64,000 nucleotides of DNA, taken from positions 1,627 to 65,626 of the forward strand of contig JBAZYS010000002.1 in assembly GCA_041659205.1 (NCBI GenBank). Reading direction: 5' to 3'. The position numbers and the translations under genes were made by a program. Source of the DNA: Minisyncoccota bacterium. GTDB lineage: Bacteria > Patescibacteriota > Minisyncoccia > Phycocordibacterales > UBA9973. Position 1 is the stretch's first letter; the number at the start of each line of letters is the position of its first letter. The notes below the pieces were generated by a model. The model searched no databases. It was not told the DNA's origin and worked only from the letters and a program-made list of their open reading frames with translations. Of this stretch, positions 15,622 to 21,514 are shown piece after piece.

Positions 15622-15662
15622 CAAAAAATCCCCTCAATATAAATACTGATGGGGATTTTTTG
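15622..15662. terminator. Hairpin ATCCCC-N17-GGGGAT flanked by A/T runs on both sides; bidirectional rho-independent terminator
   Basis: Inverted repeat with poly-T on both strands, 3' of the 892 aa gene. It is part of a 199 bp block that is identical at 18404-18602. Confidence 0.6.
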
Positions 15663-15678
15663 TTAATAAAATATAATA

Positions 15679-18460: not shown

Positions 18461-21400
18461 TTAATTCTCAATAAATATTGGTTTCTTCTTCAGCTCTGTA
18501 CAAGCAGTAGTTCCACATTTCCAAGTCCATTTCGAAGTGCTACTGGTACGATTGGTACTGCTGGTAGAACTTGGGACACAAGCATAGTGAGCTACTCCAC
18601 AAGCCCCTGTACCATTTCCAGTATCACAAAGTGTGTCTGATGGAGCAGAGACAGAACAAGTAACTCCATCACAACCCAGAGTACCAGGAATTGAATTTGT
18701 CATTCCACAAGCATTGGCTGGATTACATGGGTTGCCTTGTTGAACTGAGCAAGCAACTCCTACGGTAATTGCTGTCCAAGGAGTAGGAGCACCAGTACTA
18801 CAGTTGTTTGTTTCATTTGATTCTGAGATCGTTCCAGTAAATGATGCATCATTGTCAGCACAAACACGCATATAGTATGTGCCTGCAGCTAAGGTCAGAG
18901 ATTTTGAAGTTGTGGTAGTTCCTCCTGCTGCTACAGCAGATGCCGTGGTTGTAGTGTAATTAGTTGGGTTACTTCCAGAAGAAAATGATGATATTTGAAA
19001 TAGATTTGTAAATCCTGCACCAGTGGTAGCTGTCCCAATGTTAGAAATTGTTGAAGTATATGTTTGAGCAACATTTGGAGTAGCCATGACTGGGGCTGGA
19101 GCAGAGGCAGTAAGGTCAGAAGCGGCGGCGGCGACAGTTACATCCGTCCAGGAACTACAATTGTTTCCTTCATTTACTCCTTCATCAATAACACCCAAGC
19201 TGTTACGGTTTGTTTTATCAGCACAAGTTCTGATTGAGAATGTTCCAGTGATTGGGAAAGTATATGATTTTGTAATTGCTCTAGTTGCTCCAGCAGCAAG
19301 AGCAGGTGTAGAGGCTGAAGCGATATCAGTTAATATTCCCTTTCCACCAGGAGCAGTTGCTACTTGAAAGAAATTTGAGAATGAAGCTCCAGTAGAACCA
19401 GTACCGATATTTGAAATGGTTGAAGAGAAAGTTGTCGCTACATTCACTGCCGCTATGGCTGGAGTAGGTGCAGAGGCAGTGAGATCGGGGAGACTAGATG
19501 CAGCAGGCAAACAAGTTACAGGGTTAGCTGCAGTATCCCAAGGACCAGCACAAATAGGAGTAAGTGTTGCGAAGGCAAGTTGTTGCGCATTGTTATACAA
19601 ATAAAAAGTTGTGTCTAATCCGCCATTGTATCCAATTGTAAAAGTCGCAGAACTATTGTTTGCATCTGGACCAGGATTTGGAGTAGCTCCATCTCCATTA
19701 GTCACATGAGAAACACCGACAGGATTTTGAGTTGTCCAGGTTAAAGTTTTGGAACATCCGCTTGCATTAGGTGGAAAAGTACAAGTAGGAGTAGCTGGTG
19801 TAAGGGTACCCGTCATGCCAACAGGGGCAATACAACTAGAAGTTGCTGTATCCCAAAACGACAATAGAGGATTTCCACATGTAGTACAAGTTGGAGGATC
19901 AGTAGCGCCATTAGTACATCCAGGATTTACATTTAGACTCGTCCAAAAAGTACAATTATTAAGTTTATATAATTCACCAGAGGTGCTCCCATTTAATGGA
20001 CCAGAATAAGTGGTATAGTCTGGACCATTTGCATTAGAGTAAACATTCGCAGGAGAAGTTCCGTTGACACAACCCATAACGAGATATTTTCCTTCTGAAG
20101 TTGTGAAATTAATTGGAGAAGAATAAATATAATTTGCTCCTGAGCCAGCAGCAGTAAAAGTTGAAGTGGTAGGATTAGAAGGATATTGAGTAATTACCCA
20201 TGAGTTACCAGGAACAGGAAGCGGAGCTTCACTCATGTTTGGAGTCCAAGCAATTCGCCAAAAAGAAGGAACACCAGAAACTGCAGGATACCATCCTCCT
20301 ATCTGTGCATTAAATAATGTTGGTTTACCTACATAGGGTACTCCGGACATAAGTGTAGGACTACTTTCTGCCACAAAATCAAGTGGTGTAGTAAACGTCA
20401 CGTCTGCACCATATGATGTGAAAACACTATTTGTAGCATATGCACGAACATAATAAGTCGCATTTGGTGTAAGCCCAACCATATTACTTGTCCAAGGACC
20501 ACCAAGTGCCCAGCCATCAGTTGTCATTCCTGAGTTACTACTAGTAGTAGGGTTAGCGGTCAAACTCCAAACCAAGCCGGCCACTGATACTGTGTCCCCT
20601 CCATTTGAAACTGTATTTCCACCCCCTGTTGCACTAGCAGTAGGAGCAGTCTGATTTATATTTGTAACTGGGCTTGTTGTAGTGACAGTAGGGGCAGAAG
20701 AAGATGCAAAAGCAAAAGTATAAGTACCAGCACCAGTAATAGGACCAGTTGTATAAACATTTCCTGACCATCCACCCAAAGGAGCTTTTAATTCATCCGA
20801 ACTAGTAACAGTAGATATAGTGCCGGAAGTTTTTGTGAAACTTGTAGTATTTCCTGAAGTTACTGATTGCGAGCTTGGAGTAATAGAACCAGAACCAACA
20901 ATAGCCGTATTAACTGTATATGAAGAAGCTCTTGCTGTTACAGTAAAAGATTTGGTTGCTGTTCCACAATCTGTATTGGGGCCTGAAGCACACATAGAGA
21001 CAGATAAAGTATAAGTTCCATTTGGAAGACTAGAAATATTCAAAGATTTAGATACAGTTGTAAATGTTCCGGGAGTTCCATTATCAATAGGAGGATCACT
21101 GTCATAAAACGAATACCTTCTAGGATCATCACAATTTGCATCTCCTTCTCGCCCTGCACTTGTTTGAGTAATATCGCTTAAAGCAATATTCCCAGTAACA
21201 GCAGTAGTAAGTACAGAAGCTGTCCCACTATCCATTAAATAGGGTGTTGCCACGTATGGTCCTCCAATATATCCACCCCAGTTATAGCCAGCATCCCAAT
21301 AAAAAGGAGTAAACTCACCACAATTTTCTCTAAAAGCTCCCGAGCGAGTTCCATTCGTTGAGTAAGTAAGAGTATTCTGATCAACTGAAAGATTGGTACT

Positions 21401-21514
21401 TAATGTAAATGCTGGGACCCAGACAGATCCAACAGCTAATACTTTTTCAATTTGAAAACTAACGAATAAAACAAACACAGCTAAAACAATAATTTTAAAT
21501 GATTTGTATTTCAT
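18461..21514 (-). CDS. Giant secreted surface protein (1017 aa) with two CARDB-like domains; paralog 2
   Basis: Two tandem roughly 120 aa repeats starting DLTASAP.P and ending E.NE.NNC (the CARDB signature), one GMTGTLTP...FYLYNN module, and the same N-terminal signal peptide and C-terminal about 47 aa as the 892 aa protein. Confidence 0.7.
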   Translation of the reverse strand: MKYKSFKIIVLAVFVLFVSFQIEKVLAVGSVWVPAFTLSTNLSVDQNTLTYSTNGTRSGAFRENCGEFTPFYWDAGYNWGGYIGGPYVATPYLMDSGTASVLTTAVTGNIALSDITQTSAGREGDANCDDPRRYSFYDSDPPIDNGTPGTFTTVSKSLNISSLPNGTYTLSVSMCASGPNTDCGTATKSFTVTARASSYTVNTAIVGSGSITPSSQSVTSGNTTSFTKTSGTISTVTSSDELKAPLGGWSGNVYTTGPITGAGTYTFAFASSSAPTVTTTSPVTNINQTAPTASATGGGNTVSNGGDTVSVAGLVWSLTANPTTSSNSGMTTDGWALGGPWTSNMVGLTPNATYYVRAYATNSVFTSYGADVTFTTPLDFVAESSPTLMSGVPYVGKPTLFNAQIGGWYPAVSGVPSFWRIAWTPNMSEAPLPVPGNSWVITQYPSNPTTSTFTAAGSGANYIYSSPINFTTSEGKYLVMGCVNGTSPANVYSNANGPDYTTYSGPLNGSTSGELYKLNNCTFWTSLNVNPGCTNGATDPPTCTTCGNPLLSFWDTATSSCIAPVGMTGTLTPATPTCTFPPNASGCSKTLTWTTQNPVGVSHVTNGDGATPNPGPDANNSSATFTIGYNGGLDTTFYLYNNAQQLAFATLTPICAGPWDTAANPVTCLPAASSLPDLTASAPTPAIAAVNVATTFSSTISNIGTGSTGASFSNFFQVATAPGGKGILTDIASASTPALAAGATRAITKSYTFPITGTFSIRTCADKTNRNSLGVIDEGVNEGNNCSSWTDVTVAAAASDLTASAPAPVMATPNVAQTYTSTISNIGTATTGAGFTNLFQISSFSSGSNPTNYTTTTASAVAAGGTTTTSKSLTLAAGTYYMRVCADNDASFTGTISESNETNNCSTGAPTPWTAITVGVACSVQQGNPCNPANACGMTNSIPGTLGCDGVTCSVSAPSDTLCDTGNGTGACGVAHYACVPSSTSSTNRTSSTSKWTWKCGTTACTELKKKPIFIEN

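Follow-up and report, generated by a model that had tools for sequence, protein, structure and literature searches.

How do two adjacent genes come to share one end to the last base when their interiors are assembled from different parts, and what might the shared end do? The question is raised by a tandem pair of long genes, here termed paralog 1 and paralog 2, on contig JBAZYS010000002.1 of a Candidatus Paceibacterota metagenome-assembled genome (MAG) from the candidate phyla radiation (CPR); the 64 kb of this contig that were analysed are referred to as the window. Both genes encode predicted surface proteins and lie beside a pilus operon. To our knowledge, the means by which CPR/Patescibacteria recognise and attach to their hosts are largely unknown, and we know of no adhesin from the much larger group of the Paceibacteria. 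Type IV pili have been implicated experimentally in the host attachment of Saccharibacteria (PMC11623550). We read the locus, with a probability of roughly 0.6, as a lineage-specific tandem duplication of a hypervariable surface-protein gene, combined with gene conversion or recombination at the 3' end, shuffling of modules in the interior, and a C-terminal tail that would serve in docking. The two genes and their main modules are as follows.

15679-18348, minus strand: coding sequence of paralog 1, 889 aa from the ATG at 18348 (the NCBI call); the open reading frame (ORF) opens at a TTG at 18357, giving 892 aa
18461-21514, minus strand: coding sequence of paralog 2, 1017 aa
16006-17316, minus strand: four tandem FYLYNN modules of paralog 1, ~105 aa each, with four conserved Cys
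19490-19816, minus strand: single FYLYNN module of paralog 2
18743-19450, minus strand: two CARDB domains of paralog 2 (Pfam PF07705, E = 1.3e-14, two stretches)

The original prediction, made by a model from the DNA letters alone, had described tandem paralogs of 892 aa (15679-18357) and 1017 aa (18461-21514), and both ORFs were confirmed. Paralog 1 matches P0001 (locus tag WC847_01190) and paralog 2 matches P0113, annotated as 'CARDB domain-containing', each at 100% identity; both NCBI/JGI entries are encoded on a single contig of 163,105 bp. On inspection, the N-termini (MKYKS[LF]KIIVLAVFVL...VSA/VLA) are Sec-type and lack the prepilin motif G/FxxxE (the slash marks the cleavage site). They differ at one position within the first 17 residues, so the signal peptides are indeed near-identical, as had been stated; at the DNA level, the 5' ends (promoter and signal-peptide region) show 86% identity over 101 nt and 93% over 74 nt. 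The view of the products as secreted, adhesin-like proteins adjoining a pilus operon appears sound as well.

Paralog 1 runs from its signal peptide through a Cys-rich N-domain, a 'TITPSSQSV' domain, an Ig-like domain and the four FYLYNN modules to a Cys-rich linker, a mini-domain and the C-terminal tail. In paralog 2, the signal peptide is followed by a p2N domain that differs from the N-domain of paralog 1, a 'TITPSSQSV' domain (64% identical between the two), an FN3-like domain, a segment termed p2mid, one FYLYNN module and the two CARDB domains, before this protein too ends in a Cys-rich linker, mini-domain and tail. A Pfam scan at E <= 0.1 returned only CARDB for paralog 2 (54.7 bits, above the gathering cut-off of 22.7), in agreement with the two CARDB-like domains predicted there, and only a sub-threshold CBM_14 for paralog 1, in which CARDB is missing. 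NCBIfam models gave zero matches to both proteins, and no solved relative was found by sequence for either. The FYLYNN modules had been counted correctly, four and one, and their description needed revision: each carries four invariant Cys rather than two, and the FYLYNN motif lies about two-thirds along the module rather than at its end. Structure prediction with AlphaFold2 (AF2), which had been proposed for this module and for the C-terminal domain, yielded an all-beta fold for the FYLYNN module (predicted local distance difference test score, pLDDT, 93.5), whose neighbours in a Foldseek search of the PDB were generic, weak Ig/FN3-like matches only (E-values of at least 0.025, TM-score ~0.45). 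With its two true CARDB domains and a module predicted to form an Ig/FN3-like beta-sandwich, the pair resembles CARDB/Ig-like repeat surface proteins of CPR and other bacteria, but differs from them in that no Pfam or NCBIfam model, nor a solved relative by sequence, was found for either the FYLYNN module or the mini-domain. Two abundant modules absent from both model collections are thereby documented.

That domains have been shuffled, as predicted, is apparent from the relatives. The nearest relatives of paralog 1 change from segment to segment, and more than 30 relatives are differing permutations of one module set. Between genomes, only the 5' and 3' ends of the gene align and the interiors are replaced; the 3' alignment continues into pilB at ~85% identity (loci L003 and L006 against L001). 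The homologue search with paralog 2 was flooded by Bacteroidota FN3-like repeats and contained no near-identical allele. It revealed P0338, a third family member on another contig of the same MAG, which carries the signal peptide of the paralogs and a region 60% identical to paralog 2, and which ends without the tail in a transmembrane helix and a different domain.

Against this mosaic background, the 3' ends of the two genes and the transcription signals around them are arranged as listed here.

15620-15820, minus strand: 3' identical block, copy 1, adjoining pilB; exact 201-bp identity to copy 2
18402-18602, minus strand: 3' identical block, copy 2; its low-coordinate edge, between 18401 and 18402, is the tandem-duplication junction
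15619-15665 (copy 2 at 18401-18447), minus strand: intrinsic-terminator-type hairpin, -25.3 kcal/mol, z = -6.42
18358-18386, minus strand: promoter-like site of paralog 1, CTCACA-17-TATAAT
21524-21553, minus strand: promoter-like site of paralog 2, TTTTCA-18-TATAAT
15615-15643, minus strand: promoter-like site of pilB, TTTATA-17-TG-TATACT, just ahead of the pilB ATG

The reported identity of the 3' ends is real; its length was given as 199 bp and is 201 bp. The block comprises 46 full codons (CGVAHYACVPSSTSSTNRTSSTSKWTWKCGTTACTELKKKPIFIEN; CGVAHYAC...KKKPIFIEN), the stop codon and 59 nt downstream. It includes the terminator hairpin that had been predicted, which is flanked by an A-run and a U-run (UUUUUU after the stem) and which a simple terminator scanner failed to detect because of its loop and bulge; analogous hairpins lie 3' of the stop codon at most related loci. 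The TATAAT of each copy ends 9 nt ahead of the ATG, and the corresponding mRNAs would be near-leaderless. Each copy has a promoter-like site, a start codon, a signal peptide and a terminator of its own and appears to be a complete transcription unit. At the DNA level, the two units align only in the promoter/signal-peptide region (the 101 nt mentioned above), an internal 235-nt segment (74%) and the 3' 201 nt. Were the block to diverge at the 14% seen at the 5' end, 201 unchanged bases would be expected with a probability of ~0.86^201 = 7e-14 by our arithmetic, and the identity is therefore not a product of chance.

In five other Paceibacteria-type contigs (L001, L003, L004, L006 and JGI 3300050046), a single homologous gene fills the slot between NusA and pilB, from which it follows that the window carries a lineage-specific tandem duplication. 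Its junction can be placed between 18401 and 18402, since the homology between the regions upstream of paralog 1 and paralog 2 stops at ~18399, flush against copy 2 of the block. The junction cuts the -10 region of the pilB promoter (GTT/ATACT, the slash here marking the junction). Tandem pairs of tail genes upstream of pilB are also present in L010 and L031, which are independent assemblies. These observations bear on the concern, raised with the original prediction, that the pair is an assembly artefact, in which short-read assembly of the MAG joined two strain alleles of a single-copy locus through the 201-bp repeat that they share. Exact repeats of ~200 bp are a classic cause of mis-joins, the source is a MAG and the locus is hypervariable between relatives. 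We nevertheless consider an artefact very improbable. A tandem order depends on a unique junction, with the promoter region of paralog 1 set against the terminator block, which a two-allele bubble would not make; upstream homology is lost exactly at that junction, and the tandem pairs in L010 and L031 were assembled independently. A further pair was seen on CAZADR010000002.1, the source of both L013 (1259-1690) and L008 (1-432): two tail genes there match without a difference over at least 432 bp at their 3' ends, up to a point 3 nt past the stop codon, and are followed by pilB in one case and by GNAT/NUDIX/kinase genes in the other.

How the identity arose is indicated by comparison of the two ends across genomes. 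Over the 3' end (141 coding nt plus 59 nt downstream), paralog 1 and paralog 2 are 100% identical and the five orthologues are 59-74% identical to them; over the 5' 110 nt, paralog 1 is 85% identical to paralog 2 and 93% identical to L003. Clustering by genome is thus seen for the 3' ends but not for the 5' ends, a pattern characteristic of concerted evolution and in agreement with the gene conversion or recombination originally proposed. The tract is bounded by the duplication junction on one side and by the end of interior homology on the other, and it is of the maximum possible length. At the other end of the gene, the first 60 coding nt of paralog 1 (18289-18348) match L006 (269-328) at 59 positions, L003 (125-184) at 58 and paralog 2 at 48. 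The pilB genes of the L006 and L003 genomes are only ~80% identical to that of the window. Such a match of the signal-peptide region to distant genomes points to either a nucleotide-level constraint on a leaderless start or lateral exchange of 5' ends.

The 5' comparison also lends some weight to a different origin of the pair, in which the second copy arrived by recent duplication or Campbell-type insertion. Either a foreign allele in circular form would have integrated through one crossover in the 3' block, or unequal exchange would have taken place, and the interiors would have been different alleles from the outset. Non-homologous sequence would then be expected on both flanks of the identical block, as is found, and one edge coincides with the duplication junction, as expected for a crossover segment; the 5' end of paralog 1, nearer to alleles of other species (58-59/60 nt) than to paralog 2 (48/60), suggests a separate allelic origin. 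Like recurrent conversion, whose footprint would be the same, an insertion of this kind would amount to recombination at the conserved end. We consider this course unlikely. The mini-domains of paralogs 1 and 2 have in common a derived short loop, WKCGTTAC, that was not seen in the orthologues examined, and with the block only 59-74% identical to available orthologues, the donor would have to be near-identical at its 3' end alone; no such donor was found.

Under the duplication-and-conversion reading, a gene that in Paceibacteria-type CPR genomes is modular, Sec-exported and located between NusA and the pilB-pilC-minor-pilin operon would have been duplicated in this lineage, giving two complete transcription units in which beta-sandwich and Cys-knot modules form a mosaic. 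The perfect 201-bp identity would go back to recent gene conversion or homologous recombination over the only still-alignable tract, at the 3' end, and the interiors would diversify by gain, loss and swapping of modules among family members. The outcome would be two different 'payloads' presented between one and the same pair of ends. Concerted evolution by gene conversion is familiar from surface-protein paralogues such as Neisseria opa and the outer-protein families of Mycoplasma and Helicobacter. As in opa-type systems, a tract that is identical within a genome and diverged between genomes lies beside tracts of older divergence in hypervariable exposed proteins; in contrast to them, the converted tract is the conserved anchor end with the terminator instead of a variable region, and diversity comes from the shuffling of whole modules. 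The locus provides a clean example of concerted evolution that is limited to the anchor end of a surface protein, with diversification going on in its interior.

The original prediction went further in speaking of a variation cassette. Programmed antigenic or phase variation of the pilE/pilS or vlsE type, in which directed gene conversion between conserved ends copies a donor cassette into an expressed gene, would account for hypervariable interiors between conserved ends, within as well as between genomes, and for a perfectly homogenised 3' end; surface-exposed proteins beside a pilus operon in an episymbiotic lineage would be plausible subjects, and conserved segments flank variable ones in the pair as they do in silent-cassette systems. 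Such systems employ promoterless partial donor cassettes, however, and none was present in the window: both copies are full-length and have the complete set of promoter-like site, ATG, signal peptide and terminator. A tblastn search of the 64 kb with both full-length proteins found no further copies of the 5' or 3' end and no gene fragments, only one Ig-like domain shared with a 1208-aa protein (30125-33751). No recombinase, invertase or reverse transcriptase was seen among the larger ORFs scanned, and most related genomes have one copy only. Programmed rewriting is, in our estimate, improbable, and this part of the prediction is not upheld. The idea that the genes are targets of a diversity-generating retroelement was rejected, given that the repeat is 100% identical, where a TR/VR pair would differ at adenines, and that no reverse transcriptase occurs among the scanned ORFs of the window.

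We turn to the function of the shared end. The earlier proposal was that the Cys-rich C-terminal 47 aa form an anchoring or sorting domain. This stretch resolves into two elements of unequal distribution.

15709-15819 (paralog 1) and 18491-18601 (paralog 2), minus strand: four-Cys mini-domain, C..HY.C...WTW.C....C (profile search, AF2)
15682-15708, minus strand: tail KKKPIFIEN of paralog 1, a strictly terminal motif
18464-18490, minus strand: tail KKKPIFIEN of paralog 2, a strictly terminal motif

At E <= 1e-3, a profile of the last 50-58 residues matched 1204 representative proteins, in as many as 44 stretches of a single protein, most of the stretches being internal. The C-terminal sequence is therefore not peculiar to the two genes, and the mini-domain (C..THY.C...WTW.C.G.NGG...C) is a common repeat rather than a C-terminal anchoring domain, which leaves the last nine residues as the candidate element. 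The count comes from an exhaustive search of representatives, used after a word-indexed profile search with the C-terminal alignment had returned one 51-aa fragment and a local hmmsearch had shown the profile to be sound. AF2 predicts a small three-stranded sheet for the mini-domain (pLDDT 82.8), for which no match was found among PDB folds. Among the representatives P0122-P0266, the pattern VNG.C..THY.C..G......W.W.C.G.NGG...C marks a large repeat family lacking a model, and in P0144 the mini-domain is fused to a Hint/intein-like domain.

The tail behaves differently. Its consensus, (K)KKPx[FY]xE[NDE]-COOH, closes 35 of the proteins gathered, nearly all of which have Sec signal peptides, and within 424,707 aa the motif occurs 29 times at the terminus and never internally. 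The sequence preceding it is variously the mini-domain (24 cases), an unrelated Ig-like domain (22) or something else (11). Every synonymous position of the tail codons varies between loci, and the distance from the stop codon to pilB ranges from ~20 to ~2000 nt, which indicates that selection acts on the tail peptide and not on the DNA. On the same two grounds, a DNA-level cause of the conservation, such as a pilB promoter, -35 element or ribosome-binding site within the last codons, was ruled out. AF2 assigns the tail a pLDDT of ~64 and no secondary structure. In 596 Gb of species-representative genomes, the degenerate DNA pattern for KKKPxFIE[ND]-stop had 16 matches, comprising 14 loci in CPR MAGs and 2 chance frames of 10-15 codons; in metagenomes, 25 of its 27 matches were large ORFs of the tail family. 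Literature searches for the motif string and for C-terminal sorting in CPR found no paper, and the tail appears to be a previously undescribed, strictly terminal and CPR-restricted element. A suspected likeness to the prepilin leader/FTLIE motif was dropped, as the Glu register is mismatched and a hydrophobic helix is missing.

As a short signature at the extreme C-terminus of otherwise unrelated signal-peptide surface proteins in one lineage, the tail recalls the tripartite sorting signals (LPXTG/sortase, PEP-CTERM/exosortase, GlyGly-CTERM/rhombosortase and PGF-CTERM/archaeosortase). It differs from these in that no hydrophobic helix or basic cluster follows: the basic residues precede it, and the protein ends in E-[N/D/E]. 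A signal of the sortase/exosortase type was ruled out on this ground, and no sortase/exosortase-type enzyme was found among the selected ORFs scanned in the window.

A candidate partner is suggested by the genes next door.

9383-15610, minus strand: pilus operon (T2SSE/T2SSF annotation in the syntenic L001; N_methyl, GspH)
13847-15610, minus strand: pilB
12607-13863, minus strand: pilC
11119-12602, minus strand: three pseudopilins with G/xxxxE5
9383-11116, minus strand: 577-aa pilin-like protein without E5

In combining three E5 pseudopilins with a large pilin-like protein that lacks E5, the operon resembles the make-up of tip complexes. The 577-aa protein follows the three pseudopilins, has a pilin-like N-terminus (KRNGG/AAMLISVVFFLF) without Glu5 and no Pfam match, and is similar, in these features, to a tip subunit of the GspK/PilX type that carries a large additional domain. 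Across loci, pilB lies directly downstream of the strict-tail gene in 34 of the 37 that are informative, i.e., that have enough downstream sequence (12/13 in genomes and 22/24 in metagenomes, sets that overlap and represent one clade). The exceptions have a toxin-antitoxin-like pair inserted (L025), a second paralogue (L031) or a second copy elsewhere on the contig (L013). The association of tail and pilB is strong, and may be synteny.

We infer surface display, adhesion and a docking partner as follows. The N-terminal signal peptide would direct export, and the C-terminal nonapeptide, an unstructured peptide dependent on its terminal position, would dock the exported protein to a partner at the cell surface by a peptide-in-groove interaction or beta-strand addition. 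The most likely partner would be the neighbouring minor-pilin tip complex, which would make the proteins functional analogues of PilY1. That the tail is a new docking or sorting signal of Paceibacteria-type CPR, handing Sec-exported, reshuffled adhesins to the tip complex of a type IV pilus, is a proposal that we put forward tentatively.

Several findings count against the overall reading of the locus, at both its evolutionary and its functional end. The tails of the tandem pair in L010 are not identical, so homogenisation is not general, and a very recent duplication with replacement of the interior would leave the same pattern as gene conversion. Most pilB proteins of strict-tail loci are ~80-87% identical to that of the window, so that inherited synteny alone could account for the adjacency. 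Among four loci with divergent tails, three have no pilB beside the tail gene: those of P0100 and P0102, and that of P0219 (L054), where the gene leads directly into TIM-PGK-RecJ-ComEC and the pilus operon is missing; only at P0088 does pilB-pilC follow. A terminator and an independent pilB promoter lie between tail gene and pilB.

The same findings speak for a broader role, in which the tail is a general retention or sorting signal of the cell envelope, recognised by a wall or S-layer receptor or a C-terminal processing enzyme, pilus-independent and next to pilB through conserved synteny only. P0100, P0102 and P0219 bear the tail without pilB downstream, the L054 neighbourhood is otherwise conserved from NusA to TIM-PGK-RecJ-ComEC, the tail gene in L013 precedes unrelated genes, and transcription signals divide tail gene and pilB. 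We regard this as possible, if doubtful, in view of the 34 of 37 informative loci directly upstream of pilB, which include differing interiors and preceding domains, and of the restriction of the tail to one or two proteins per locus, with none elsewhere in the window. P0338 shares both the MAG and the signal peptide with the paralogs but not the tail, unlike what would be expected of a signal common to many surface proteins.

The pilus-tip proposal has a precedent. PilY1 and Neisseria PilC (Pfam PF05567) are non-pilin adhesins of type IV pili that carry a Sec-type signal peptide, are encoded beside minor pilins and combine a variable N-terminal 'business' part with a conserved C-terminal end that presumably fixes them in the tip complex. 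The paralogs agree with them in the Sec-type signal, in being encoded beside minor-pilin and assembly genes, and in pairing a variable N-terminal part with a conserved C-terminus. They differ in having no beta-propeller domain (no Pfam match), a conserved C-terminal element of 9 residues in place of a ~500-aa domain, and a gene that forms a separate transcription unit; the pilus association is drawn here from gene context. Since the defining beta-propeller is absent, they are not members of the PilY1/PilC family, though this family is their closest functional analogue. Should the proposal hold, the locus would represent a PilY1-like display in which the anchor has shrunk to nine residues and any combination of modules can be mounted on the pilus, and duplication with 3'-end gene conversion would let the cell carry two payloads at once. 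As a hypervariable, modular, secreted family with fixed ends, the genes constitute a concrete adhesin candidate for the Paceibacteria. The tail can serve as a search handle in any genome, as a target for mutation or as a bait peptide, and can be modelled against the neighbouring pilins.

The pilB gene and the surroundings of the operon furnished additional observations. At many loci, a conserved extended -10 element (TGnTATAMT) ends 7-9 nt before the pilB ATG (ATGCAAAT...), right after the terminator of the upstream gene; the comparison comprised 15610-15665 of the window and the intergenic regions of L008, L011, L014, L015, L019 and L020. On this basis, pilB appears to be leaderless. In the window, its -35-like TTTATA sits in the terminator loop. 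Beyond the operon follow TIM, PGK, RecJ and ComEC, the last (Competence plus DUF4131) lying with RecJ at 2774-7055, 2.3-6.6 kb past the pilus genes, in a conserved order NusA...tail gene...pilus operon...TIM-PGK-HIT-RecJ...ComEC. The pilus may, judging by these neighbours, be a DNA-uptake (competence) pilus.

On the other side of the pair, directly upstream of paralog 2, a 419-aa predicted lipoprotein (21642-22901, minus strand) has a LISC/GGGGGG lipobox followed by a Gly run and a CarboxypepD_reg-like domain; SdrD_B/CarboxypepD_reg analogues flank the locus in L001, L006 and L053. In L051-L053, a Por_Secre_tail protein is encoded divergently upstream of the tail gene. The local GC content rises to 0.455 at 22001-24000, against ~0.37 elsewhere, and an ORF in this region (23144-23941, plus strand, 265 aa) combines a signal peptide and no Pfam match with a C-terminus resembling that of outer membrane proteins (...STRF), which is odd for a CPR genome. 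The secreted 1208-aa protein (30125-33751, minus strand) has an Ig-like 'LTWS...C' domain in common with paralog 1 (33% over 93 aa), together with a PG_binding_1 domain, Ser/Thr/Asn-rich linkers and a Cys-rich C-terminal region, and is probably another member of the shuffled surface-protein pool. An Rfam search of the whole window returned four tRNAs only, which form a cluster at 58549-59711 (Gly-GCC, Arg-TCG, Pro-TGG and Gly-TCC).

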